Positions 1-64,000 of a DNA stretch of 64,000 nt are shown here, one piece after another; within the stretch, counting starts at the first letter, position 1, and each line of letters begins with the position of its first letter. The DNA lies in the NCBI GenBank assembly GCA_964512625.1, contig CAZEKG010000004.1, positions 9,223-73,222 of the forward strand. The letters run 5' to 3'. The DNA comes from an uncultured Gammaproteobacteria bacterium (GTDB taxonomy: Bacteria; Patescibacteriota; Patescibacteriia; 2-01-FULL-39-33). Under the pieces are notes generated by a model, which saw only the letters and a list, made by a program, of their open reading frames with translations, was not told where the DNA came from and ran no database searches. Made by a program: the position numbers and the translations under genes.

Positions 1-404
1 ATCAAAAAATCAAGAAAGAAGAGATTACTAATCTAGAGTCCGTCTGCTCAGATGTTTTATCTTTTGAAATAATCCAAGAAAAATATCAAGTTATAATCAT
101 TATTAATACCTTGCAATTCTTGCCACGAGAAAAATGCTTAAAATTAATAACTAACATTAAAAATAAAATAGCATTAAACGGATTTGTTGTCATCAAGGCT
201 TTTACTACCAGTGATTCCAGTTTTATTAGGAACAGGGATAATACTAATAATACCTTCTTCACTCCCAATGAATTGAAAGATTTATTTGATGACTTTAAAG
301 TTCTTCACCATTTCGAATTCATAGCGCTTGATCCTGGTCATGGAGATAAACCAGAACCTCATTTACATGGCATTGTAGAATTAGTTGCTCAAAGAACAAA
401 ATGA
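1..404 (+). CDS. class I SAM-dependent methyltransferase, C-terminal part (TehB-like); 5' end lies outside the window
   Basis: The frame is open from position 3 through the listed ORF at 111..404. The C-terminal region resembles small TehB-type methyltransferases, but no motif I is visible because the N-terminus is missing. Confidence 0.4.
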   Translation, partial: QKIKKEEITNLESVCSDVLSFEIIQEKYQVIIIINTLQFLPREKCLKLITNIKNKIALNGFVVIKAFTTSDSSFIRNRDNTNNTFFTPNELKDLFDDFKVLHHFEFIALDPGHGDKPEPHLHGIVELVAQRTK

Positions 405-440
405 TTTATTATTAGTCACCCACCAAACACGAAATTTTAA

Positions 441-497
441 CATCTCCTCTCGATAAAGTTGGAAGACTTGTCTAAAGTCGTAGAATGTAGCTTTACC
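441..497 (+). repeat. R1 promoter-like repeat, copy 1 (TTGGAA-16 nt-TAGAAT)
   Basis: ~50 bp at ~88% identity to 7527..7581. It contains -35-like TTGGAA, a 16-nt spacer and -10-like TAGAAT. Confidence 0.55.
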
Positions 498-514
498 ACC
501 AAGTAGAAAGTACA

Positions 515-1162
515 ATGAGCTCATACCTATCAATCAAAAAATCAGAGGTAAATAAAGTTCTGTATTCTTTCCTAAAAACAACAAAAAAAGAGTTGGACCT
601 CTTTTTTAATATAAAAAGCCATGAACCATTAATCTTTCTTTTAAATTCCAGAAAAGAATTAGATTTAATTTGGGGAAATAAGACGGAAAAATGGCATGTT
701 GGCGGAACAAGGTGGCTAATAGGGGGTGGGACGAAGCAAGGCGTCATTTTCATCCTTAATCCAGAAGTTTACACTAAAGAATCAAGCCATAAAGATAAGA
801 ACGACTTTTGGAAAACCCTTAAACATGAATATACTCACATCTATTTTAAACAGCTTACGGACGGAGTACTTCCTCTTTGGCTTAATGAAGGAATAGCTTC
901 ATATCTATCCGATCAAAGGCAATCCTGCAAAAACCCTTTAAACATCTTTTCCTATTTTAATAAATCAGATAAAGACATCTATGCTATTGGTTATTTCTGG
1001 GTTGAACTACTAATAAATAAATTCGGGAAAGACAAACTAGTAGGACTGATAAAATCCTTGGAATTAAAACCAAGCTTAACTGAAAAGATATTCAATGAAA
1101 GATTTTATAAAATATACGGTTTTAAATTCAACAAGGCTAATCTTAGTAAGTTAATCGATTAA
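515..1162 (+). CDS. MA-clan (gluzincin-like) zinc metallopeptidase-like protein
   Basis: HEYTH followed ~17 residues later by LWLNEGIA (HExxH...NEG), the signature of thermolysin/M1-like gluzincins. A weak RBS precedes the start, and an R1 promoter-like element lies immediately upstream. Confidence 0.5.
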   Translation: MSSYLSIKKSEVNKVLYSFLKTTKKELDLFFNIKSHEPLIFLLNSRKELDLIWGNKTEKWHVGGTRWLIGGGTKQGVIFILNPEVYTKESSHKDKNDFWKTLKHEYTHIYFKQLTDGVLPLWLNEGIASYLSDQRQSCKNPLNIFSYFNKSDKDIYAIGYFWVELLINKFGKDKLVGLIKSLELKPSLTEKIFNERFYKIYGFKFNKANLSKLID

Positions 1163-1285
1163 GATTAAGAAAATACTTCAAAAAAGAGGCCCGACTTATT
1201 CTTTAAATACATACCAGATAGTATGAAAGATAAAGCAAACTCCATGATTTATAAATCATCTATTGTATAAATAACGTTTATTTCT

Positions 1286-1738
1286 ATGTTCAGAAAAGGA
1301 GTTTCTGCGCTTATCAAAAACAAAAAAGACGAGTTTCTTTTAGTTAATTTAGAATCTTTTGAAGAAAAGTATTTCGCAATTCCAGGCGGCGGAGTTGAGC
1401 AGGGTGAGACACTGGAAGATGCTGTATACCGAGAAATAAAAGAAGAGTTAGGAATTGAAAGGAAGTATCTTGAATTTATAGGCCAAAGCAACATTCCTAT
1501 TAGATTCAAATTTAAGGTAATTAAAATGAATAGAGACGGGGGAAACTACGAAGGTTCGGAGAGATACTTTTTTGGATTTAGATTTATTGGTAATAAAAAA
1601 ATAATAGTTCCAAACCCAGGAGAGGTCCGATCTTACAAATGGATCGCTTATGACGAGTTAAAAAAATATTTACTCTTCGATAATCAGCTGCGGGAAACGT
1701 CAGATAAAATAAAAGAAATATTTCTTAACTTACCGTGA
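1286..1738 (+). CDS. NUDIX hydrolase
   Basis: Nudix box GGGVEQGETLEDAVYREIKEELGIE (GX5EX7REUXEEXGU). Confidence 0.8.
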   Translation: MFRKGVSALIKNKKDEFLLVNLESFEEKYFAIPGGGVEQGETLEDAVYREIKEELGIERKYLEFIGQSNIPIRFKFKVIKMNRDGGNYEGSERYFFGFRFIGNKKIIVPNPGEVRSYKWIAYDELKKYLLFDNQLRETSDKIKEIFLNLP

Positions 1739-1799
1739 TTTTTGTCGTGCGTCTTATGATGGGTCATAATAACTATATAAGGGCATGCTTGAAAAGACT

Positions 1800-1862
1800 A
1801 AAAACTTCCTTTTCTGCTTAGTTTTATGGTATAGTTTTAAGATAAATTAGAATAAAATATGG
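1800..1862 (+). repeat. R2 promoter-like repeat, copy 1 (extended -10 TGgTATAGT)
   Basis: ~60 bp similar to 7748..7809. It ends at the ATG of the 1859 gene. Confidence 0.55.
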
Positions 1863-2368
1863 CAAAAATAAAAATAATTATCTCTTGGGACGGAATAAAA
1901 AGGGAGCTTGAAATGACACTAAAAAATCATCATCACGGCAATTTTAAACGCTGGGGATTAAAGCCTATACTACCGCCACGCAGATCAAGAGAAAGCTATA
2001 TAAATGCTGCTAAAAGATACTATCAAGAATCTGATCGGAAAAACAAAATACAGAGCATTATTCCAGAAATGGAAGCTTGGTGGGATAGAGAAGGTTATTT
2101 ACTTTCAAAAAAAGCCTCCGAAATAACGAGGATTAGTGAACCATCTATTTACTATGTAATTCTAACTCCCTTCGGTCCCGGAGGCGGATATAATAAATTA
2201 GCAAATACTGTTTTTATTAGAATTACCAGTCTCGATAACAGCGATTGGTGGAAAAAAGTAATTATACACGAGGTTGCCCATATATTAAATGGATCAAAAC
2301 TACAAAAAGTTCATAAAGAAAACGAGAGAAAGATTAATGAAATTGTAAGAAAATTACAGACGAAATAG
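1859..2368 (+). CDS. hypothetical small HExxH protein (putative metallo-hydrolase)
   Basis: C-terminal HEVAH motif. The R2 promoter-like element lies immediately upstream. There is no other recognisable domain. Confidence 0.4.
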   Translation: MAKIKIIISWDGIKRELEMTLKNHHHGNFKRWGLKPILPPRRSRESYINAAKRYYQESDRKNKIQSIIPEMEAWWDREGYLLSKKASEITRISEPSIYYVILTPFGPGGGYNKLANTVFIRITSLDNSDWWKKVIIHEVAHILNGSKLQKVHKENERKINEIVRKLQTK

Positions 2369-2460
2369 AAATATGTTAACAAATACAGATAGGATAATAC
2401 AGCTATAAACCAAAAAAACTAGCCTAATTTTAGATATTTTTTTAAGAAAATAATCCGAAA

Positions 2461-3156
2461 CTATTTCTTAATGATAATAATTGCCTCATCCAGTAAATTT
2501 TGAAAATCCTTATTTTTTGACCAAATATTTTTTAATTTCTTTCTTAGCTCTTTATGTTCAGGATATCCGGGATCTTGGCATAATATAATTTTGTTAAACT
2601 CCGGCTCATTCAGTAAAAAAGTTAAAGATTCTTTCAAATCTTCAATCTGGTTATTTTCCAACCCTTTTCTTTTTACGTAGTCTTTGTAGTGATGCAGAAA
2701 CTGCAAGTGCATTATTTCATGGCAAATGGTCGTAATAGAAAAAGAAGTGCTGTGCCACATCGAAGCCATAAACCAGCTTTCTTTTTCGTTATAAGGACAA
2801 ACAAAGCCAGTAGTAAAGTAACAACTGAATTTTTCTTTAAAAATAGGCTTTTTCATGATTAGCTTAAGGGCTTTGAAATACTTTTTTTCAACTAGCCTCC
2901 ATGATTTTTCGAGCGCCTGCATTTCAAAACGCATCACCTTATTTTTGTAATCTTTTTTTGGATTATTTTTAATATAGTCCTCAACTATTTTTTGGGCGCG
3001 AAAAAAACTGGCTTTTTCGATTTTTTCTAAAAGCTCATCCGGAATCTGGGCAATTTGTTCACGCCAATTCAAGCCCCACATATTTTTGTCTTTGGCAATC
3101 AAAACCCAGCTCCAGGCGTCTTTATTGAGATTGTAGTCAAATTTAACTTTTGTCAT
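2461..3156 (-). CDS. hypothetical HExxH protein
   Basis: HEIMHLQFLHH motif in the C-terminal half. A Cys-containing segment precedes it. Family not recognised. Confidence 0.4.
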   Translation of the reverse strand: MTKVKFDYNLNKDAWSWVLIAKDKNMWGLNWREQIAQIPDELLEKIEKASFFRAQKIVEDYIKNNPKKDYKNKVMRFEMQALEKSWRLVEKKYFKALKLIMKKPIFKEKFSCYFTTGFVCPYNEKESWFMASMWHSTSFSITTICHEIMHLQFLHHYKDYVKRKGLENNQIEDLKESLTFLLNEPEFNKIILCQDPGYPEHKELRKKLKNIWSKNKDFQNLLDEAIIIIKK

Positions 3157-3160
3157 GGAT

Positions 3161-3658
3161 TTACTTATTTAATAATCGCCGTATTCTTGCTATTGCCTCT
3201 TTAATAGATGATTCTGTCGATACCAACTTGCCGCCAATCTCTAAGATAAAACTTTTTGCCATGGCGTCACAGTTCAAAAGAATTACTGGTTTTTTAGCTT
3301 TAATTGCCAATGCAACCTCAGAAAGAGTTCCGCTTGAAATCTTACCGCACGCGACAACAACATCACTAGATAATACGTTAATGTTGTTTCTGGCGCTTCC
3401 CATATTTGTTATAATTGGCACATCAACCCAATCAGATGCGAGCCGTGCATTTCTATGAGGAATAATACCAATAGTTAATCCTCCTACAGATTTTGCTCCT
3501 TTATTCACCGCATCCATAATACCTTTATTTCTTCCGCCACTTAAAACTACCCACCCAGATTCAGCAATTGATTTGCCCAATTCAAAAGCAAGGTCACTGT
3601 CTATGTCACGTGCCCCCTCACCCGATCCCATTACTCCAATAATAATCTGCCTGCTCAT
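3161..3658 (-). CDS. TIGR00725 / LOG-like (SLOG) Rossmann-fold nucleotide-binding protein
   Basis: N-terminal IGVMGSG glycine-rich loop, PVILLN and a GGxxT-like core, typical of the YgdH/LOG lysine-decarboxylase-like family. It is tightly coupled to the upstream HD gene. Confidence 0.65.
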   Translation of the reverse strand: MSRQIIIGVMGSGEGARDIDSDLAFELGKSIAESGWVVLSGGRNKGIMDAVNKGAKSVGGLTIGIIPHRNARLASDWVDVPIITNMGSARNNINVLSSDVVVACGKISSGTLSEVALAIKAKKPVILLNCDAMAKSFILEIGGKLVSTESSIKEAIARIRRLLNK

Positions 3659-33685: not shown

Positions 33686-35284
33686 ATGCTCATCAAACTA
33701 AAAAGGATTCTTGACTATATCGAATCCCATAGCAAAACTTTCGGCGTTTTGCTTTTTTTGTTTGCCTTTTTTTATTTCTCTTGGCTGCAATTTAATACCG
33801 GACTCGGCGATCCCGATAGCTATTACCATTTAAAAATCAGCCAACTTATCTTTGAATTAAAATCGCCGGTTTATAATTTTCCTTATCTTCAATTTACGAC
33901 CTTAAAGGATTATTATATCGATCATCACCTCCTTTATCATCTCTACTTAGCGCCTTTTATTGGTTATTTCGGCCTTTTCCTCGGCGGCAAGATAGGCCAT
34001 ACCCTATTAGCCTCTTTATCGATCGTTGCTTTCTACTTTCTAACTAAAAAATTAAAAATAAAATACGCTTTTTTCCTCGTCCTCTTACTTTTCTTAACGC
34101 CGGCTTATATCTTTCGCATCAATCTGATTAAAGCCCAGCCCCTTTCCTTGATTATCGTTTTTCTTTCAACCTACTTTATTATTAAAAGAAAATTATCCGC
34201 CCTGATCGCTTTAAGTTTTATTTATGTTTGGTCTTACGGCGGCTGGGCGATCCTGCCTATTATCGCACTAACTAATATCTTTTCCGAAAGCCTTAAAGAG
34301 TTAGCTGATTTTTCAAGATCTTCTTTAGCCGGTTTTATAAAAAATATTTTCAGTAAAAGAAATATCCAACTGATCTTAGCCGTTTTAACCGGCTTAGCTC
34401 TTGGAATAGTTATTAACCCTTATTTTCCGAAAAACCTCCCCTTTTATTTCGATCAAGTCGTTCAAATAGGACTTTTCAATTACCAATCGAAAATCGCCGT
34501 CGGCGCCGAATGGTATCCTTACGGACCTTTAGACTTCTTAATTAAGATAGGCGTACCTTTTATCTTATTCCTTTTAAGCTTAGTATTATTTTTTAATTAT
34601 CATAAAAAACTCAATAAGAATACCTGGTTTATTTTTATCCTTAGTTGTCTTTGGCTAATAGCTACCGTAAAATCAAGAAGAAACCTGGAATATTTCGCTC
34701 CTTTCGCCTTATTACTTTTCGGATTGCTTTATACCGAGGCAGTTAATAATCCTTATATCAAGAATGAACTAGCGCCAATAGCTAGAAATATTAAAAAATA
34801 TATATGCGATACGAAAATCCATTTCTATTTTTTAATTTCTATCGCCATAATTTGCTGTTTTTTAAATATAGCCTTAATCGGCGAAAAAATAAGAGCCTCA
34901 TTCAATAAAGACTACCGGGAAGACTACTTAAAAGCGGAAAGCGCGGTCATTAAAAACAATAGCGAAAAGGACGAGATTATTTTCAATACTGAATGGGATG
35001 ATTTCCCGGCCCTCTTTTATCATAATACTAATAACTATTATATAACCGGACTGGATCCGACTTTCATGTGGCTGAAAAATCAGGAGGACTACAAGAAATG
35101 GGACGCCATCATAAGTAATAAGCTATCCGGAGAAGAAATTAAAAAGGAGCTAATTAATACCTTTAAGAGCCGTTTAATTATATTAGAAACTGACCGGAAA
35201 GAATTACTCTTAAAGCTCAGTGAAGGCCCGGAATTCGAAAAACTTTTTCAATCAGCCAGGTTTGCCATTTTTAAAATTAAATAA
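33686..35284 (+). CDS. polytopic membrane protein, possibly a GT-C-fold glycosyltransferase
   Basis: More than 10 predicted TM segments. An early loop has GLGDPDSYYHL (acidic DxD-like loop). Family not resolved. Confidence 0.4.
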   Translation: MLIKLKRILDYIESHSKTFGVLLFLFAFFYFSWLQFNTGLGDPDSYYHLKISQLIFELKSPVYNFPYLQFTTLKDYYIDHHLLYHLYLAPFIGYFGLFLGGKIGHTLLASLSIVAFYFLTKKLKIKYAFFLVLLLFLTPAYIFRINLIKAQPLSLIIVFLSTYFIIKRKLSALIALSFIYVWSYGGWAILPIIALTNIFSESLKELADFSRSSLAGFIKNIFSKRNIQLILAVLTGLALGIVINPYFPKNLPFYFDQVVQIGLFNYQSKIAVGAEWYPYGPLDFLIKIGVPFILFLLSLVLFFNYHKKLNKNTWFIFILSCLWLIATVKSRRNLEYFAPFALLLFGLLYTEAVNNPYIKNELAPIARNIKKYICDTKIHFYFLISIAIICCFLNIALIGEKIRASFNKDYREDYLKAESAVIKNNSEKDEIIFNTEWDDFPALFYHNTNNYYITGLDPTFMWLKNQEDYKKWDAIISNKLSGEEIKKELINTFKSRLIILETDRKELLLKLSEGPEFEKLFQSARFAIFKIK

Positions 35285-35345: not shown

Positions 35346-35756
35346 TTAGCCAGCAGTTGCTATAACGATATTATCAATAACGAACTTGGTAATACCGTAA
35401 GAAGTCATGATAATAACGACGCCGATAATAGCATTGATAATCAGTTTTTTTGCTTTATCAACTTTGCCGGTATCGCCACCAGCCGTCATCCATTGGAAGC
35501 CCGCCCAAATAATTAGTAGGACAAAGACAATGCCTAGAAAGCCTAGGATTACTTCAACTACTTTACCAATGAGTTGAGGTAAAGTTTCAGCAGAAGCTCC
35601 GCCAAGAGAACTAAGACCGGTATTATCTAGATTACTATTTATACTTCCAGAAACATCGACTTGAGTCGCTGCCAAAACTAAACTTGGCAAGATAAATACC
35701 AGCATAAATAGAACTGGCAATACTCTAACCGCTAACTTTTTCACTTTTTTCATCAT
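35346..35756 (-). CDS. secreted TrbC/VirB2-like pilin paralog 1
   Basis: Signal peptide plus the conserved core IWAGFQWMTAGGDTGKVDKAKKLIINAIIGVVIIMTSYGIT (two TM segments around WMTAGGD). The start was set at MKKVKKLAV. Confidence 0.6.
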   Translation of the reverse strand: MMKKVKKLAVRVLPVLFMLVFILPSLVLAATQVDVSGSINSNLDNTGLSSLGGASAETLPQLIGKVVEVILGFLGIVFVLLIIWAGFQWMTAGGDTGKVDKAKKLIINAIIGVVIIMTSYGITKFVIDNIVIATAG

Positions 35757-35790
35757 ATTTTTTTTATTTAATTTCACTAAATTTAATTTT

Positions 35791-36255
35791 CTAAATTGTT
35801 CCATCAGCGGCAGTCGGAAGAGGAGCAGTCGGCGTAGAGGCGCCCGGAGCTTTCATAGCATCATTAATAGACTTAATAACGAAAGTCGTTATTCCGTAAG
35901 ACATCATGATAATTATTAGACCAATAACGGCATTAAGAATAAGGGTTTTAGACTTTCCGACTTTACCAGTATCGCCTCCCGCTGTCATCCATTGGAAGCC
36001 CGCCCAGATAATTAGAAGTATAAAAACAATGCCAAGGAAAGCGAGGATTTTCCCAATAATATCTCCAACTAAATAAGGTAAATTCAGCTTTTCGCCCCCC
36101 AACTCCTTGAGATTGGTACTGCCCATATTGTTCTTAATATTGGTCAAGATCTTACCATCGGCGGCTAAAGACTGAGAAGATAAAAGAAAAGAAAAAGAAA
36201 AAAACAAAACCGCTATCGTCAATATCAATAATATTTTCTTTCTTTTTTCTTTCAT
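35791..36255 (-). CDS. TrbC/VirB2-like pilin paralog 2
   Basis: Signal peptide. IWAGFQWMTAGGDTGKVGKSKTLILNAVIGLIIIM. Confidence 0.6.
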   Translation of the reverse strand: MKEKRKKILLILTIAVLFFSFSFLLSSQSLAADGKILTNIKNNMGSTNLKELGGEKLNLPYLVGDIIGKILAFLGIVFILLIIWAGFQWMTAGGDTGKVGKSKTLILNAVIGLIIIMMSYGITTFVIKSINDAMKAPGASTPTAPLPTAADGTI

Positions 36256-36272
36256 ATTAAATAAATTGCTAA

Positions 36273-36689
36273 TTATTTAGGAGAAACAGCTCCTGGAGAT
36301 GAAGTCGCCGCACTGCCAATAACATCAATTACGAAATAAGTCAGGCCATAAGAAGCAAGAATAATGACTAGCCCAATAACTGCATTAATCAATAAAGTCT
36401 TAGACTTTCCGACTTTACCAGTATCGCCTCCCGCTGTCATCCATTGGAAGCCCGCCCAGATAACTAAGATTACAAAAACTACTCCGAGAAAGCCAAGCAA
36501 AGTAGCGACAATATTACCAATAAAGGTAGCGAGGCCGGCGCTATTACCTTGAGCTCCACCCAAAGAAACAAGGCCCGTATTTTTTAAATTTTTCATTGTC
36601 TCAGACGGTGCCGCTAAGGCGAAAATTGGGGACAACAAGAAAAAAACTAATAAAGAAACTGAAAATAATTTTATAGTATTTTTTTTCAT
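36273..36689 (-). CDS. TrbC/VirB2-like pilin paralog 3
   Basis: Signal peptide. IWAGFQWMTAGGDTGKVGKSKTLLINAVIGLVIIL. Confidence 0.6.
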   Translation of the reverse strand: MKKNTIKLFSVSLLVFFLLSPIFALAAPSETMKNLKNTGLVSLGGAQGNSAGLATFIGNIVATLLGFLGVVFVILVIWAGFQWMTAGGDTGKVGKSKTLLINAVIGLVIILASYGLTYFVIDVIGSAATSSPGAVSPK

Positions 36690-36697
36690 AAATCTAA

Positions 36698-37072
36698 CTA
36701 TTCCGTTATACCGACAAGGCTTAAAACTAAGGTAGTTATACCGTAAGAAACCATGACCAGTATCAAGCCGATAACCGCGTTAATCATAATCTCCTTAGCT
36801 CTTTTTACTTTTGCCGTATCTCCCCCGGCCGTGCCCCAGGTAAAGCCGGCCCAGATAACTAAAACAATCATTATAACGCCGATAAAACCTATGATTGAAG
36901 TTACCATGACTCCAACTAGGCTCGGAAGATCAGAAGAAGCGCCGGTTTTCAAACTTTCCGGGACTGCATTCCCCAATCTCGTCCTAGCATCACTAGTAGT
37001 AGCGATGGCTTCCTGACTAAAAGCTAAAAAAGCTAAAAAAACTAGAGTTAATTTTGTTTTCAAGTTTTTCAT
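36698..37072 (-). CDS. TrbC/VirB2-like pilin paralog 4
   Basis: Signal peptide. IWAGFTWGTAGGDTAKVKRAKEIMINAVIGLILVM. Confidence 0.55.
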   Translation of the reverse strand: MKNLKTKLTLVFLAFLAFSQEAIATTSDARTRLGNAVPESLKTGASSDLPSLVGVMVTSIIGFIGVIMIVLVIWAGFTWGTAGGDTAKVKRAKEIMINAVIGLILVMVSYGITTLVLSLVGITE

Positions 37073-37120
37073 AATTAGAATCAGGAGGGACGGACGAATC
37101 CGTCCCTCAATGAATCAATA

Positions 37121-37495
37121 TTAACCGTTGGTAATACCTTGAAGATTAGTAATAACGAAACTGGCAATTGCGTAAGCACTGAAAATAATAACCAAACCGA
37201 TAATACCGGAGATGATTAATTTCTTAGCCTTCTCAACTTTAGATTCGTCGCCAACCGCTGTCATCCAAATGAAACCGCCCCAAAGGACGATTAAAACGGC
37301 AAGAATGCCCAAGAAGCTTAGAACGATGCCGACTAAGCCTTGGATGGTCTCTTTTAGATCATTGTTGCCAAGACCGAATTGAGCGTTTTCCAAATCAACA
37401 TTAACCTGAGCGCTAGTCATTAAAGGCAATGCCATAAGAGAAACTAAGGCCATGCTTAAAACGGCAGCTCCTACTTTTTTCTTTGTGATTTTCAT
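37121..37495 (-). CDS. TrbC/VirB2-like pilin paralog 5
   Basis: Signal peptide. LWGGFIWMTAVGDESKVEKAKKLIISGIIGLVIIF. Strong RBS GGAAGGGAGGTGAA. Confidence 0.55.
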   Translation of the reverse strand: MKITKKKVGAAVLSMALVSLMALPLMTSAQVNVDLENAQFGLGNNDLKETIQGLVGIVLSFLGILAVLIVLWGGFIWMTAVGDESKVEKAKKLIISGIIGLVIIFSAYAIASFVITNLQGITNG

Positions 37496-37601
37496 TTATT
37501 CACCTCCCTTCCTGGCTAATTAAATAATGTTATATTTAACCGCCCTTAATTTATTATACTTATAATTTAGCAAACTTTGCGACTTTAGACAACAATAAAA
37601 C

Positions 37602-37940
37602 CTATGCTCCAATAGCTTGAAGAACAAAGCTGACAATGGCATAGGAACTGAAAACGAAAAATAACCCTAAAACTGCCCAAATCATCATCTCCTTGCCTTT
37701 CTTAATCTTACTAGAGTCACCATAAGACATCATCCAGGTCAATCCCCCGTAAACAAAAGCGACAAGAGCTAAAACGCCGGTTAATCCAAGAGCAGCTGTG
37801 GTCGCATTCTTAACCACCGTCTCGATACTAGCAGCCTCTCCTAGTGGATTTAGAAGTTGCGTCGGTTCTTGAGCTAAAACAACTACCGGTAAAATAAAAA
37901 CTACTGCCTGTATAGCGAGGATTGATAATCTTTTTTTCAT
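37602..37940 (-). CDS. TrbC/VirB2-like pilin paralog 6
   Basis: Signal peptide. VYGGLTWMMSYGDSSKIKKGKEMMIWAVLGLFFVF. Confidence 0.5.
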   Translation of the reverse strand: MKKRLSILAIQAVVFILPVVVLAQEPTQLLNPLGEAASIETVVKNATTAALGLTGVLALVAFVYGGLTWMMSYGDSSKIKKGKEMMIWAVLGLFFVFSSYAIVSFVLQAIGA

Positions 37941-37972
37941 ACTATTTTCCTTAATAAAGAATTAACTTTAGT

Positions 37973-38422
37973 TTATTCGGTTTTCCCCGGACATTGGCTC
38001 CAATTACTACCTTGACCGGTTTTTAAAATACTGGATAGTTTTGAATAAGAATCACTAACTCCGCCACCCACTAAGGCTAAGACAACTGTATTGATAATCG
38101 TCCAAGCGAAGAAGATAATACAAATCCCGACCGTAGCGGCGATTAAAGTATTCTTACCCCATTGATAACGGCTCGAATTGCCATAAGCTGTAATCATAAT
38201 CATACCGCCCCAAATAAACATCAAGATTCCAAGGACTCCGGAAAGCCCAACTAATATATCGGAAGCATTAGTAAAAATTTTAAGGAATTCACAAGGAGTA
38301 CAGATGCCTGTGTTTATACATGTGATGCCGTCTAAAAGATTATTAGCAGCCCTAACCTCGGAAACTCTAAAAAGAGAGAAAAGAGCAAATGATAAAAAAG
38401 TTATGGCTAAATATTTTTTCAT
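37973..38422 (-). CDS. divergent Cys-rich pilin-like paralog 7
   Basis: Signal peptide, a Cys cluster CINTGICTPC, then a two-TM hairpin IWGGMIMITAYGNSS...IAATVGICIIFFAW. ATGA overlap with the SBP gene. Confidence 0.45.
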   Translation of the reverse strand: MKKYLAITFLSFALFSLFRVSEVRAANNLLDGITCINTGICTPCEFLKIFTNASDILVGLSGVLGILMFIWGGMIMITAYGNSSRYQWGKNTLIAATVGICIIFFAWTIINTVVLALVGGGVSDSYSKLSSILKTGQGSNWSQCPGKTE

Positions 38423-41114: not shown

Positions 41115-43463
41115 ATGGATAAAAATAATAATGGCGAAATACCAGCAAGAAGAGGGGACGTTGATCCAACGAGACAGGAACTTAACCAATTACTAAGCGA
41201 TGTAAATGCCCCAAATCCAGACGCAGCACTTCCAGGTGAGCGGCTGAACCACGCAGTAAAAGAAGGGGTTGATACCGTAAATGCTGAGACGGTAGAAGGA
41301 GTCATTACCGACACTAAAAGAGAGACTTTAGGTGAAATCTCTTTGGGAAGTGATGCCGTAAGCGATGCTACCAAAGGACTACCAAAAGATATAACAGCTC
41401 CTTTAGTAATAGAGGCAGATGAAGCGGCGGCGATCTTATCGGCCGGGCTAAGACAAGAAGCTGAAACACTAAGAGACCATAAGAATAATATAGAAGACAA
41501 CGCCCAACCTAATAATCCAGCTGTTTTTAAAGAAAATAAAGAGGGAGGAGATTCAATTAAATTCGTAAACGACCTTAAAACAAATATACCAATACATACG
41601 GCCAAAGAAATACTTTATGATTTAGCAGCTAGAGATTTTATAACCTTTAATGATGAAGTAAAACTAAGAAGAACCTTAGATTCATTTGAAAATTCTGAAC
41701 AAACTGGCCCTGATTTATTTAAAATTATCAATAACATCAAAGAATTAAAGAAAAACAATAATGATTCCCCACTTACTGTATCAAGAAAAACTGCGGGGGA
41801 GATATTAGATTCTTTAGTGGACTCTCAACCAGAAGTATTTGATGGACAAAAAATCGAAAGATTACAAGAAGAAATAAGGTCTTTTTATGAAAGTAAAAAA
41901 GAGAAACCTGATGAAATATCTCTAAAAATACTTTTTAAAATTATTGAAGACTCTATTAATAATACAGCGGATAAATCCCCTTTAGTCGCTCCAGATCTCA
42001 TTACCCCTAAACCAACATCAACACAAGGAGTTGAAACCGACTCAGGAGATGACTGGCATTATCGAAAACCAACTCCGGTAGAGCCTGAGGATGAAGATAA
42101 TGAAACTTCAGTTAATCCAGAGCCTGTCACTCCTGAAACAACACCAGCAAATGAACCCTCCTCAGAACCCATTATAGAACCAACACCCTCAACCCCGGAA
42201 CCTGCTAGTCCCTCACCATCTCCAGAGCCTGTCACTCCTGAAACAACACCAGCAAATGAACCCTCCTCAGAACCCATTATAGAACCAACACCCTCAACCC
42301 CAGAACCTACTAGAACAGAAACTCCTCCGCAAGCCTTAGAAATTCCCGATCCATACGAGTTTGACGGTATAATAAAAACCAAATACCGAGACATTAAAAA
42401 TTGGTTCGATAGGAACCTTTCCGTAGGCTTCGGCGAAGGCAAAGAACATAGGACTTCCAACAGGTTTTTTAAATCCATCGCTAATTTTTGGGATAATAAA
42501 TGGTTTAACCGCCATGATAAAAAATCTGCCGCCCTTGAAGCCAGGCAAGATTCCATAACTAACCAAGTTAACCGCCTTAAAGCCCAAATAAGCGCTCGTG
42601 AAGCCCGTTTAGCCGGCAATCCTTCTAATTCAGAAAGAAGAAAACTGGAAAGAGAATTGAGAAAATATGAAGACCTGCTATTACCCTTAGAAAGAAAACA
42701 AGAAAAACTAGCCACTAAACTGGGTGATTTTGACCGTGTTAAGGAAAAGCATCATGAGAGAGTAGCGGCGAGATGCGAAAGTATAAGCTCCGCCATAAAA
42801 GAAAAAATGTCGGAGAATCTTGAGCTTATCAATGATAAAAAATTAGACCTCTCCAAAAGAGAAGCTGATATCCAAACAGCTAAAGATACTCTAGATACTT
42901 GCAAAAGCGCTTTATTAGAAATAAAAAGGCAATACCGCAGTGCCGACCCATTAACCAGGCCGGAACTTAAGGCCAATATAAGCGCCATAGAAGAAAAAAT
43001 TAAAGAACAATCGGACGAGCTTAAAGAAAAATCAAAGGAATACCGAGCTATAAGCAAACAGCTAAATAGACTAGCAAAAAGAACCAACCCCTGGATAGAT
43101 TTAGCGACTAATTACGAAAGAATGGCTGATCGGACAGCTCCTTATTCCTCAAGAGATCGAAGACCTAATGATACTATGTCCGAAACAATTACTCCGACTA
43201 GGCCTTCAGGTTACGAAGCCTCCTCAGAGTCTAATCTAGAAATTAGGGATAACGAGCCAGTCAAGATTGACGCCTATTTAGCAATTTGGAATGCCTTTAA
43301 TACTGATATTCCAATACTTAGAGAAAGCTTAAGCCTAGGAAGAGAAAAATCAATTCCTATCTCACGACTAGAAAATATAATTAGAAGTAATAATCCTTCA
43401 GCAGAAGGTCTAGATAGGCGCTTTCAGGCCTTAAGAAAAATTAAAACAATTAAAGACAACTAA
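41115..43463 (+). CDS. large (782 aa) hypothetical protein with a Pro/Thr/Glu-rich tandem-repeat linker and a C-terminal coiled-coil region
   Basis: No signal peptide. Central EPVTPETTPANEPSSEPIIEPTPSTPEP duplicated. C-terminal heptad-rich segment (LEARQDSITNQVNRLKAQISAREARL...). Confidence 0.5.
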   Translation: MDKNNNGEIPARRGDVDPTRQELNQLLSDVNAPNPDAALPGERLNHAVKEGVDTVNAETVEGVITDTKRETLGEISLGSDAVSDATKGLPKDITAPLVIEADEAAAILSAGLRQEAETLRDHKNNIEDNAQPNNPAVFKENKEGGDSIKFVNDLKTNIPIHTAKEILYDLAARDFITFNDEVKLRRTLDSFENSEQTGPDLFKIINNIKELKKNNNDSPLTVSRKTAGEILDSLVDSQPEVFDGQKIERLQEEIRSFYESKKEKPDEISLKILFKIIEDSINNTADKSPLVAPDLITPKPTSTQGVETDSGDDWHYRKPTPVEPEDEDNETSVNPEPVTPETTPANEPSSEPIIEPTPSTPEPASPSPSPEPVTPETTPANEPSSEPIIEPTPSTPEPTRTETPPQALEIPDPYEFDGIIKTKYRDIKNWFDRNLSVGFGEGKEHRTSNRFFKSIANFWDNKWFNRHDKKSAALEARQDSITNQVNRLKAQISAREARLAGNPSNSERRKLERELRKYEDLLLPLERKQEKLATKLGDFDRVKEKHHERVAARCESISSAIKEKMSENLELINDKKLDLSKREADIQTAKDTLDTCKSALLEIKRQYRSADPLTRPELKANISAIEEKIKEQSDELKEKSKEYRAISKQLNRLAKRTNPWIDLATNYERMADRTAPYSSRDRRPNDTMSETITPTRPSGYEASSESNLEIRDNEPVKIDAYLAIWNAFNTDIPILRESLSLGREKSIPISRLENIIRSNNPSAEGLDRRFQALRKIKTIKDN
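42121..42309 (+). repeat. tandem direct repeat (105 bp unit, ~1.8 copies) inside the large gene
   Basis: agcctgtcactcctgaaacaacaccagcaaatgaaccctcctcagaacccattatagaaccaacaccctcaacccc... is repeated almost identically from 42226. Confidence 0.85.
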
Positions 43464-57235: not shown

Positions 57236-57607
57236 TTATTTTTTACCTTTTAATGTTAAAATGCTCGAAGCTAATATATTGGCTATTTCGACTTGTTCAG
57301 ATATTAACCAATTCAACTCTGGAACATTTCCATAACCAGTATTTCTAAGTAACGTTAACCATACCTTGGATTCATTAGCTGACTTTAAAGAATGTGTAAA
57401 GAAATTAATAAAATCCTTTCTTGAGCTTGCCGAGTTCGCTTCCACATAATTAGCTAAAACGCTTGTGCCGCTTCTTAAAAGCTGCTTACCCATTACATCA
57501 GCAACATTGCTTTTAGGCATTCTATCAATGAACTTAACTAATCTTAGAACATAACTGTATAATCTTTTTTTAAATTCAACTTTAAACTTTGCATTGTCAT
57601 TTTCCAT
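57236..57607 (-). CDS. four-helix-bundle protein (23S rRNA intervening-sequence protein family, TIGR02436-like)
   Basis: Characteristic YSYVLRLVKFIDRMPKS...GKQLLRSGTSVLANYVEANSASSRKDFINFFTHSLKSANES. Confidence 0.75.
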   Translation of the reverse strand: MENDNAKFKVEFKKRLYSYVLRLVKFIDRMPKSNVADVMGKQLLRSGTSVLANYVEANSASSRKDFINFFTHSLKSANESKVWLTLLRNTGYGNVPELNWLISEQVEIANILASSILTLKGKK

Positions 57608-58696: not shown

Positions 58697-59041
58697 TTAG
58701 TTAAGGGTAACTATCTTAACTCGTCGCCCAAATTTCCGGCAGCCTATATCTTGAATAGTCCGAAATTGGTCCGGCAACTCGCCCGAAGAGTACTCGATTA
58801 GGAACCGCCCCCCAGCCAAGCTGGTAACCATGTACAGACCATCACCCAGCGAGTGAGTTTTCCTGAAAAACATGTTGCTCGGGAGATGATACCAGTGACG
58901 AGGCCGGCCGACGAACTCCATGAAGGTCGCATGGAACTCCAACCTCCTAATGACGCTACAAAAGACAATAACCGTGAGGCCTATCAGAACCGGCTTCCAA
59001 AAATCGAAATCGAAACTGAAATGAACTCCCATGATATCCAT
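58697..59041 (-). CDS. hypothetical protein with an N-terminal TM segment
   Basis: Own promoter TTGACA-17 nt-TAAGAT (59118..59090 on the minus strand). RBS GAAGGGGAG. Downstream terminator GCTCGtcgtcaggCGAGCttttt at ~58566..58590. G+C-richer than the neighbours. Confidence 0.4.
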   Translation of the reverse strand: MDIMGVHFSFDFDFWKPVLIGLTVIVFCSVIRRLEFHATFMEFVGRPRHWYHLPSNMFFRKTHSLGDGLYMVTSLAGGRFLIEYSSGELPDQFRTIQDIGCRKFGRRVKIVTLN

Positions 59042-62098: not shown

Positions 62099-63136
62099 AT
62101 GGCAAGAATAATTTACGGGGTCTCCGGCCAAGGCTTTGGCCATTCAACCCGAAGCAAAGAAATTCTCACTCACCTGGCCTCTAAGGGTCATGAGCTTTTA
62201 GTATTTACTTATAATCAAGGGGCTTATTTCCTTAAAGACGACTTTAATATTTGGGAAGTGCCCGGATTAGAACTGACTTATAAGAACAATAAACTGGTTT
62301 ATTGGAATACGATTGTTAAAAATGTCGGTAAGCTCGCCCGCCAATCGAAAAATTGGAAAGAGAATTTATCTAAGTTTAGGGAATTCAATCCTGATTTAGT
62401 CATAACCGACTTCGAGCCGCTTTCAGCCGTACTCGCTAAGGTCCAAAGAATTCCGCTAATTTCTCTCGACAATCAGCATCAAATGACCAATACCAAACTT
62501 GAACTGCCCATAAAATATAAGAAAGATCTTATGGCTGATCAAATGGTCATAAAATCCCTAGTTTGGGGGGCTAAATACTATCTCCTCACCTCTTTTTTCA
62601 AAACCGAAATAAAAAAGAAACATACCTTCCTCTTTCCCCCGATTCTAAGAAAGGAAATAAGGGAGTTAAAAACCGAAAAACGCGATTATATCCTAGTTTA
62701 TCAAACGACCGCCTTTGGTTCTTTAATTGAGGAATTGAAAAAAATAGATCAAAAATTCATCGTTGTTGGACAAGAAATAGCTAAAATAGAAGGAAATGTC
62801 ACTCTTAAGAAATATAGCCGGGAAGAATGGCTAAGTGATCTCGCTAATTGTAAAGCTATTATCGGTACGGCGGGATTAAGCCTAATAACAGAGAGCCTTT
62901 ATCTTGAAAAGCCTTATTTAGCCATTCCGATCAATAAACAAATCGAACAAGTTATAAACGCCCATTATTTAAGAAAAATGAATTACGGCGATTACTGCTA
63001 TAAGTTCAATAAAGAGTGTTTCGAGGACTTTTTAAAGCGCCTGCCCGAATTTGAAGCTTCTTTAAAGAACTATCCTAAATCTGATAATTCCGAAATTCTA
63101 AAAAAACTAGATGAGTTAATAGATTATTTGGCCTAA
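62099..63136 (+). CDS. glycosyltransferase, MJ1255/TIGR00661-like (GT-B fold)
   Basis: N-terminal GVSGQGFGHSTRSKEI, typical of this GT family. Confidence 0.6.
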   Translation: MARIIYGVSGQGFGHSTRSKEILTHLASKGHELLVFTYNQGAYFLKDDFNIWEVPGLELTYKNNKLVYWNTIVKNVGKLARQSKNWKENLSKFREFNPDLVITDFEPLSAVLAKVQRIPLISLDNQHQMTNTKLELPIKYKKDLMADQMVIKSLVWGAKYYLLTSFFKTEIKKKHTFLFPPILRKEIRELKTEKRDYILVYQTTAFGSLIEELKKIDQKFIVVGQEIAKIEGNVTLKKYSREEWLSDLANCKAIIGTAGLSLITESLYLEKPYLAIPINKQIEQVINAHYLRKMNYGDYCYKFNKECFEDFLKRLPEFEASLKNYPKSDNSEILKKLDELIDYLA

Positions 63137-63261
63137 TTTAAACATAATATCTAAATTTAAACAAAATACCGGAGTAATTAGTTCCGGTTTTGTTTTTAAT
63201 ATCATTAAAACCAACTTATTTAGTAGGTTATAATTCTGATCCTAAAAAGCTGAATAAAAAC

Positions 63262-63270
63262 TGTGGATAA
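63262..63270. promoter_or_regulatory. DnaA box (TGTGGATAA, a perfect match to TTATCCACA on the other strand)
   Basis: Exact 9-mer. A degenerate box GGGGATAAA lies 11 bp downstream. Confidence 0.45.
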
Positions 63271-63440
63271 ACTGTTGCTAAAGGGGATAAATGTCTAGAC
63301 ATGTCTGGACAGAACTCAAAAACCTAAGACTGTTCATAAGTCAACCTTTAAAACTGTTTTTGGCTAAATTTAGATAAATATATATTAGCTAAAATAAGCC
63401 AAATATATTTAGACGATCATTTTACCAATAAAAAAGAAAA

Positions 63441-63456
63441 TGTTTCACGTGAAACA
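63441..63456. promoter_or_regulatory. parS site 1 (TGTTTCACGTGAAACA)
   Basis: Exact match to the chromosomal ParB-binding consensus tGTTtCAcGTGAAACa. Confidence 0.8.
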
Positions 63457-63537
63457 TTTTGTATTTGCGAGCCTTAAAAAATATTGGCATCTAAGACCCC
63501 TTTAACTTCTATTTATTATCCCAAAGCCCCTTTAGTT

Positions 63538-63662
63538 GTCATCCCGGACCTGCCTGTCCGGTAGGCAGGCTTGATCCGGGATCCAGGTTAATTAAAAATT
63601 CGATCTAATTAAACCTGGATTCCCGCCCCTGCCTACCGGTAGGCAAGGTGCGCGGGAATGAC
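63538..63662. repeat. 125-bp G+C-rich imperfect palindrome (MITE/REP-like hairpin element)
   Basis: Arms GTCATCCCGGACCTGCCTGTCCGGTAGGCAGG...CCTGCCTACCGGTAGGCAAGGTGCGCGGGAATGAC. It contains the perfect 20-bp palindrome CCTGCCTACCGGTAGGCAGG. Confidence 0.7.
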
Positions 63663-63689
63663 AATCAAAGAGGATATTAACTAATAAAA

Positions 63690-63705
63690 TGTTTCACGTG
63701 AAACA
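63690..63705. promoter_or_regulatory. parS site 2
   Basis: TGTTTCACGTGAAACA inside a 24-bp perfect palindrome. Confidence 0.8.
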
Positions 63706-63772
63706 TTTTCAACTTTTAGAACTCCCTGCAAGAAATAATCCAACCCTGATAAACAATTAACGATTTACAAAT

Positions 63773-63788
63773 TGTTTCACGTGAAACA
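63773..63788. promoter_or_regulatory. parS site 3
   Basis: TGTTTCACGTGAAACA. Confidence 0.8.
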
Positions 63789-63865
63789 TTTTGTAAAATT
63801 CCAATCTATACTAATAAATGAGTAAAATGCTAAAACTCGACGATAAACTTGTCTTTTTTAAGAAA

Positions 63866-63881
63866 TGTTTCACGTGAAACA
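63866..63881. promoter_or_regulatory. parS site 4
   Basis: TGTTTCACGTGAAACA inside a 32-bp perfect palindrome TTAAGAAATGTTTCACGTGAAACATTTCTTAA. Confidence 0.8.
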
Positions 63882-63958
63882 TTTCTTAAATTAAAAAACG
63901 TCCGATTTTCGATTGATATTTTTGGTTATCATTTTCTTAATGACTAGTTATTTGAAAA

Positions 63959-63974
63959 TGTTTCACGTGAAACA
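63959..63974. promoter_or_regulatory. parS site 5
   Basis: TGTTTCACGTGAAACA inside a 32-bp perfect palindrome TTTGAAAATGTTTCACGTGAAACATTTTCAAA. Confidence 0.8.
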
Positions 63975-64000
63975 TTTTCAAAAATTGAACTAAATAAATA

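Follow-up and report, generated by a model that had tools for sequence, protein, structure and literature searches.

We found that the 64,000-nucleotide stretch of DNA analyzed here (the window) ends in non-coding DNA that carries an array of five or more canonical parS sites. Judged by its sequence, this array is probably a chromosomal centromere of a Patescibacteria bacterium. The first-pass annotation had proposed a compact centromere for ParB nucleation, and this is the natural reading of canonical parS sites that are far beyond chance, non-coding, and chromosomal. The sites are perfect, clustered, and individually maintained. The whole 64-kb stretch is part of a single replichore, and the sites lie at the end of the stretch that faces the origin. 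Arrays of this kind are present in at least 119 other places, in one listed Patescibacteria case directly upstream of dnaA-dnaN. We concluded that the array is a functionally ordinary predicted ParB loading site in an unusually compact form. ParB would bind at the five sites, and we assume that the host genome encodes a cognate ParB.

The parS array and its non-coding setting

Judged by gene content, the window comes from the chromosome of an uncultured bacterium of the Patescibacteria (candidate phyla radiation). It carries housekeeping genes (those for IleRS, ThrRS, ArgRS, and TyrRS, ruvB, queA, and a tRNA-Ser gene), and its gene order matches that of Patescibacteria contigs of up to 802 kb. 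The housekeeping genes and the synteny with Patescibacteria place the parS array on a chromosome. To the left, the array is bounded by a glycosyltransferase gene whose nearest non-self relatives are 59 to 64% identical, several of them named by their sources as Patescibacteria or Buchananbacteria. Downstream of this gene, we found an 864-bp non-coding tail, in which a terminator, a promoter-like match, a DnaA-box-like cluster, AT-rich repeats, parS 1, a long palindrome, and parS 2 to 5 follow one another. No open reading frame of 33 or more amino acids is present in 63137 to 64000. At gathering thresholds, Rfam matched nothing but the tRNA in the window, and the tail gave only subthreshold, palindrome-driven matches. 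The features of this region are as follows.

62099 to 63136, + strand: MJ1255/VC2487-type glycosyltransferase gene (Pfam Glyco_trans_1_3, E 1.4e-101); left boundary, outside the array; synteny anchor
63168 to 63198, + strand: intrinsic-terminator-like hairpin and T-run closing the glycosyltransferase gene
63205 to 63234, + strand: sigma-70-like promoter match, TTAAAA-18-TATAAAT type, 10/12, pointing into the DnaA-box cluster; a consensus match only
63262 to 63377, - strand: six DnaA-box-like 9-mers in a single orientation, one perfect (TTATCCACA) and five with 2 mismatches
63292 to 63311, no strand: two abutting 10-bp inverted repeats, TGTCTAGACA and TGTCTGGACA
63360 to 63408, no strand: two tandem AT-rich 24-nt direct repeats, 79% alike, inside the AT-rich tract
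63441 to 63456, no strand: parS 1, perfect consensus within a 24-bp perfect palindrome
63530 to 63670, no strand: GC-rich imperfect palindrome of ~141 nt, between parS 1 and parS 2
63690 to 63705, no strand: parS 2, perfect consensus within a 24-bp perfect palindrome
63773 to 63788, no strand: parS 3, perfect 16-bp consensus; 34-bp palindrome with one mismatched pair
63866 to 63881, no strand: parS 4, perfect consensus within a 34-bp perfect palindrome
63959 to 63974, no strand: parS 5, perfect consensus within a 32-bp perfect palindrome

We scanned the 64-kb window for TGTTTCACGTGAAACA and found five exact copies, starting at 63441, 63690, 63773, 63866, and 63959, against an expectation of 0.00 in dinucleotide shuffles of the window. 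Each copy is an exact match to the 16-bp inverted repeat TGTTNCACGTGAAACA. All five lie within 534 bp (63441 to 63974) of non-coding DNA, and none is found elsewhere in the 64 kb. When up to 3 mismatches were allowed, the whole window still yielded no extra site (0.16 expected). The start-to-start distances are 249, 83, 93, and 93 bp. Thus, the earlier claims of five exact parS sites in ~550 bp and of 83-, 93-, and 93-bp spacing of the last four both held. The sites had also been placed in perfect palindromes of 24 to 32 bp, which is roughly right. We measured 24, 24, 16, 34, and 32 bp for parS 1 to 5, so that parS 3 is perfect over its 16-bp core only and parS 4 exceeds the range. The window stops 26 bp past parS 5, inside the array, and more sites may follow.

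The three spacers between parS 2 and parS 5 (67 to 77 bp) are mutually unrelated on either strand, with 35% column identity. Since the spacers are unrelated, a recent tandem duplication of a 93-bp unit is ruled out as the source of the array. This further suggests that the five perfect cores were kept individually, which implies selection on each site.

The palindromes reach well past the 16-bp core (up to 34 bp), and a promoter-like site and an operator-like tandem repeat lie nearby. Such features would suit operators bound by a regulator, ParB-like or not, or else a selfish palindromic repeat, in either case without a role in segregation. We consider this very improbable. All five copies have the pan-bacterial ParB site as their core, whereas their flanks differ, and the same core forms arrays beside parAB in 63 other listed loci. 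A selfish repeat would also be expected to show dispersed copies, and the window has none.

The palindrome between parS 1 and parS 2 has folding energies of -79 and -80 kcal/mol for its two strands (z ~-10). It is single-copy within the 64-kb window and matched no Rfam family. A metagenome scan returned relatives (L128, L130, and L131) that share its TGTCATyCyGR ends and CCTGCCTnCCGGTAGGCAGG hairpins and occur in several copies per low-GC contig. We concluded that the palindrome is most likely a small repetitive (MITE/REP-like) element inserted into the array. Together with its relatives, it looks like a member of an undescribed family of small repetitive elements. An insertion at this point would explain the 249-bp first gap.

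At 10.4 bp per turn, the parS spacings amount to 23.9, 8.0, 8.9, and 8.9 helical turns. In a post hoc test, the probability of such phasing by chance is ~6e-4 when the four spacings are treated as independent and 7e-3 when three are used, with the two 93s counted once. The phase of the 249-bp gap would be coincidental if the 141-nt palindrome was inserted. We found no general helical phasing of parS spacings across the 119 listed loci of the survey described below (R 0.08 at 10.4 bp).

The mechanism that we propose for the centromere follows established ParABS biology (PMC7333895), in which ParB-CTP loads and slides, interacts with ParA, and loads SMC. ParB dimers with bound CTP would recognize each of the 16-bp palindromes; after closing into clamps, they would slide onto the flanking DNA. 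With five loading sites in 534 bp, both the loading rate and the local concentration of ParB would be multiplied. This would let a partition complex form on a very short stretch. The array would act as a high-flux loading pad that builds the complex over the neighboring genes, and the complex would engage ParA and/or load SMC. Previous work in vitro demonstrated that more parS sites give a higher ParB loading rate, stronger condensation, and more force against which ParB condenses DNA (PMC8299390).

Dense parS arrays in other genomes

We searched one genome per species, covering 185,579 species, for three perfect parS sites 60 to 90 bp apart. Dense perfect-parS arrays were found in at least 119 stretches of these species-representative genomes. 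The hosts of the listed arrays include Bacilli, Clostridia, Actinomycetota, Alpha- and Gammaproteobacteria, Bdellovibrionales, Planctomycetota, Spirochaetes, and Patescibacteria. We concluded from these pattern matches that dense arrays of chromosomal-type parS recur in cellular genomes. The first-pass annotation had called the window array unusually dense. Its density is indeed high, but it is not unique, as at least 119 arrays are comparable. We found no literature that describes dense chromosomal parS arrays as a class.

Listed arrays hold 3 to 17 sites, with spacing modes near 38 to 51 bp and 76 to 106 bp, the upper of which is partly imposed by the search pattern. ParA and/or ParB signatures are present in the same locus (up to 8 kb) for 63 of the at least 119 arrays, and the array is often directly upstream of parA. 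A DnaA signature is present at ten.

Among the matches listed, five arrays are from Patescibacteria (L023, L030, L060, L086, and L092). None of these five has parAB in view, and two have dnaA within ~3 kb. In L092 (Patescibacteria MAG187, 76 to 3306), seven perfect parS sites lie in 1.6 kb of non-coding DNA located upstream of dnaA-dnaN. This locus has its strongest DnaA-box cluster in the dnaA-dnaN spacer, with two perfect boxes and one with a single mismatch. In L023, the array lies 2.6 kb from dnaA. The five arrays resemble that of the window: they belong to the same phylum, have the perfect consensus, are spaced from tens of bp to ~100 bp apart, are non-coding, and have no adjacent parAB. 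Their neighbors differ. Three of the five are located 5' of a UPF0102/YraN gene and one is upstream of dnaA, whereas the neighbor of the window array is the glycosyltransferase gene, with the DnaA-box-like cluster between them.

Other observations were made among the listed arrays. The richest of them is L086 (71 to 2017), where a 1.3-Mb Moraniibacteriota contig carries 17 perfect parS sites in 2 kb of apparently non-coding DNA. In four listed genomes, the array is directly 5' of a UPF0102/YraN-family gene, 20 to 230 bp from its start: L023 (7047 to 7823), L030 (1258 to 1997), and L060 (2044 to 2716) from Patescibacteria and L059 (4980 to 5891), which is unclassified. We found no UPF0102 gene in the 64-kb window. 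The Hyphomicrobiales chromosome OZ245032.1 has three arrays (L015, L020, and L080), at 0.41, 2.16, and 3.19 Mb, each with 7 to 9 perfect parS sites at a strict 49- to 50-bp period. Arrays so far apart are unlike a single origin-proximal centromere.

About 16 of the at least 119 listed arrays lie within 130 bp of a contig end. Assemblies therefore seem to break at such arrays, and the source contig of the window may stop soon too. Across all GC contents, the bases next to the 16-bp core are A (T on the far side) in 61 to 64% of 679 listed sites. This two-base flank bias suggests a functional parS consensus of 20 bp.

The locus in relatives and the position of the origin

Five syntenic contigs share the gene order EamA-queA-bPH-small ORF-ruvB-glycosyltransferase with the window (queA is absent in L126). 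Genes for tRNA-Gly(GCC) and tRNA-Leu(TAA) lie ~55 to 175 bp past the glycosyltransferase gene in three of the five; a sulfatase gene precedes the tRNA genes in the other two. In L120, the tRNA-Gly(GCC) and tRNA-Leu(TAA) genes are reversed in order and on the opposite strand. The relatives continue with rplS, tRNA-Leu(GAG), tRNA-Val, a small ORF, and tRNA-Ala. Synteny with the window ends exactly past the glycosyltransferase terminator.

None of the five relatives (15 to 21 kb each) has a parS site at up to 3 mismatches, and none shows a GC-skew switch at the locus. Similarly, dnaA, dnaN, parA, and parB are absent within 4 to 10 kb downstream of the glycosyltransferase gene in all five. Because five relatives lack the array at the same locus, this comparison marks the array, with at least 864 bp, as lineage specific here, and conservation lends no support to this position. 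Synteny would predict ordinary tRNA genes and rplS beyond the array and not an origin. This prediction is weak, since synteny is already broken at the terminator.

The relatives have tRNA genes, which are common integration sites, where the window has its lineage-specific array. In addition, about half of the at least 119 listed dense arrays adjoin parA-parB, which is a plasmid-like layout. Both observations would fit the partition site of an integrated or misbinned mobile element (a plasmid, integrative element, or prophage) whose own parAB would follow immediately on the right, and the first-pass annotation had raised a plasmid or phage partition locus as a possibility. We regard this as unlikely. 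A BLAST search of plasmid records with the array gave matches to single parS sites only, and 1 in 2.9 million viral contigs has a comparable array, so similarity to plasmid or phage centromeres was not seen. The 14 kb to the left of the array lack integrase, replication, and phage genes, the array is contiguous with housekeeping genes, and we found no flanking tRNA or tRNA fragment. The other listed Patescibacteria arrays also lie in housekeeping contexts without parAB. An assembly chimera of the array region was considered as well.

A centromere of the chromosome could lie beside the replication origin, and the DNA between the glycosyltransferase gene and parS 1 bears on this. One perfect and one degenerate DnaA box had been reported there. 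The perfect box, TGTGGATAA, is present at 63262 and degenerate boxes are present too, but two is an undercount. At up to 2 mismatches, six DnaA-box-like 9-mers start within 116 bp (63262, 63273, 63282, 63331, 63359, and 63369). This compares with 0.6 expected; none of 5000 dinucleotide shuffles reached six, and the cluster is the densest in the window. One perfect 9-mer per 64 kb is near the chance level, and boxes with 1 mismatch are not enriched in the window (17 found versus 14.1 expected). The cluster may bind DnaA, as an origin, as part of an origin, or as a DnaA-regulated promoter.

The tandem TGTCTAGACA/TGTCTGGACA repeats that had been described within this region are real. They hold the only two copies of TGTCNNGACA in the 64 kb and look like a putative operator. 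These repeats stand downstream of the promoter-like site, and their tandem form was not found in any fetched locus. Promoter-like sites in the tail region are not above the shuffle level in number.

The AT-rich stretch reported next to the boxes is also real. Positions 63346 to 63445 are ~78% AT and rank in the top 1% least stable DNA of the window in a stability profile. The tract is not distinctive, however, as at least 12 other intergenic stretches of the window equal or exceed its instability. We therefore rejected it as a DNA unwinding element, the part that it would have played in an oriC.

We monitored GC skew along the window. The replication-type skew is -0.075 over the whole window, independent of gene strand, with a coding component of 0.058. 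The cumulative skew falls to the right end and has its minimum there, which fits the direction in which the first-pass annotation had placed the origin. Since the replication skew is negative across all 64 kb, the window belongs to one replichore with the origin to the right; this gives a direction and not a distance. Motif and HMM searches found no ParA, ParB, or DnaA signature in the window, so the proposed check for par and dnaA genes nearby came back empty for the 63 kb to the left of the array.

These data bear on whether the non-coding stretch is, or abuts, the replication origin, with DnaA boxes, an AT-rich unwinding tract, and a centromere forming one module and with dnaA/dnaN and/or parAB a few kb to the right. 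Several findings point this way. The cumulative skew minimum lies at the right end; the six same-orientation DnaA-box-like sites resemble in density the cluster in the dnaA-dnaN spacer of L092; arrays of L092 and L023 lie upstream of dnaA-dnaN and 2.6 kb from dnaA, respectively; and synteny breaks exactly after the terminator. In contrast, the cluster has one perfect box, against two perfect boxes and a third with a single mismatch in L092, and the AT-rich tract does not stand out. From the skew, the origin can be placed no more closely than somewhere to the right, none of the five listed Patescibacteria arrays has parAB in view, and five relatives carry tRNA genes and rplS here, with no dnaA or parAB downstream and no skew switch. 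All of these data taken together make an origin module at this site a tentative proposal, and we hold it to be the less probable outcome.

The first-pass annotation had placed oriC with parAB and dnaA just past the window end. The direction of skew and the adjacent DnaA-box-like cluster agree with this, whereas the single perfect box, the undistinctive AT tract, and the relatives do not. We put the chance that oriC, dnaA, and parAB all lie just beyond the window somewhat below even. An origin within ~10 kb of the array is possible and has roughly a one-third share of our expectation.

A bolder model joins the array and the DnaA-box module in a compact origin-and-centromere cassette. Such a cassette would have arrived by insertion or rearrangement and displaced the tRNA-Gly/tRNA-Leu-rplS junction kept by the five relatives, and its parS sites would lie on one helix face so that a minimal ParB pool builds the partition complex. 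We consider this model improbable. If true, it would illustrate how a centromere, and perhaps an origin, can turn over in a reduced candidate phyla radiation genome.

Known systems and other features of the window

The array can be compared with several known systems. The origin-proximal parS clusters of Bacillus subtilis, Caulobacter crescentus, Pseudomonas aeruginosa, Corynebacterium glutamicum, and Streptomyces coelicolor share with it the same 16-bp consensus, several copies, and a chromosomal location. Like clusters of the B. subtilis type, the array lies on the origin-ward side of a replichore, and the same ParB-CTP action is expected of it. Described chromosomal parS sites are spread over several kb to hundreds of kb and are often inside genes. 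In contrast, the window has five sites in 534 bp of purely non-coding DNA, with 83- to 93-bp spacing for sites 2 to 5. Unlike described chromosomal ParABS systems, it has no parAB within 63 kb on the visible side.

Plasmid and secondary-replicon centromeres made of tandem repeats include F sopC and R1 parC. The Deinococcus radiodurans repeat arrays, which lie upstream of parAB, belong to this group too (PMC7671480). The window array resembles all three in that a short non-coding array of regularly spaced protein-binding repeats would form a compact centromere. It differs from them in that the repeat is a chromosomal-type parS, only the palindromes repeat, and the spacers are unrelated. It also differs in that its replicon is a chromosome with housekeeping genes and no adjacent parAB is visible.

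The DNA beside the array was likewise compared with bacterial oriC regions. As in an oriC, a same-orientation cluster of DnaA-box-like sites is followed by AT-rich DNA with two tandem AT-rich repeats, beside parS. Unlike in a typical oriC, a single box is perfect, the AT-rich tract does not stand out, and the window shows neither dnaA/dnaN nor a skew switch. Adjacency of oriC to dnaA/dnaN is usual and not universal.

In the searchable literature, we found nothing on ParB-parS in Patescibacteria. We concluded that the window array is a compact form of the known chromosomal parS cluster in a phylum without any described. Patescibacteria are uncultured organisms with tiny cells and reduced genomes, in which chromosome segregation is unstudied. 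A review of ParABS lists as open questions why the number of parS sites varies and why the sites cluster (PMC7333895). Together with at least 119 others, the window array provides ready-made material for these questions. In practice, dense arrays point to the centromere, and in many cases to the origin region, of fragmentary metagenome-assembled genomes. They also appear to break short-read assemblies.

Elsewhere in the window, we noted features that do not touch the array. The large open reading frames at 41115 to 43463 (+ strand, 782 amino acids) and 33686 to 35284 (+ strand, 532 amino acids) had no Pfam match at E of 0.01 or below. Two genes are inserted in the otherwise conserved GH42-like/EamA/queA block: a 23S-rRNA-intervening-sequence-protein gene (57236 to 57607, - strand) and a 114-amino-acid open reading frame without a family match (58697 to 59041, - strand). 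Both are absent at these positions in the syntenic relatives. Finally, seven tandem paralogous small genes (112 to 154 amino acids; 35346 to 38422, - strand) all match the type IV secretion system pilin family PF18895. This row adjoins a solute-binding protein gene, and relatives have three such genes.
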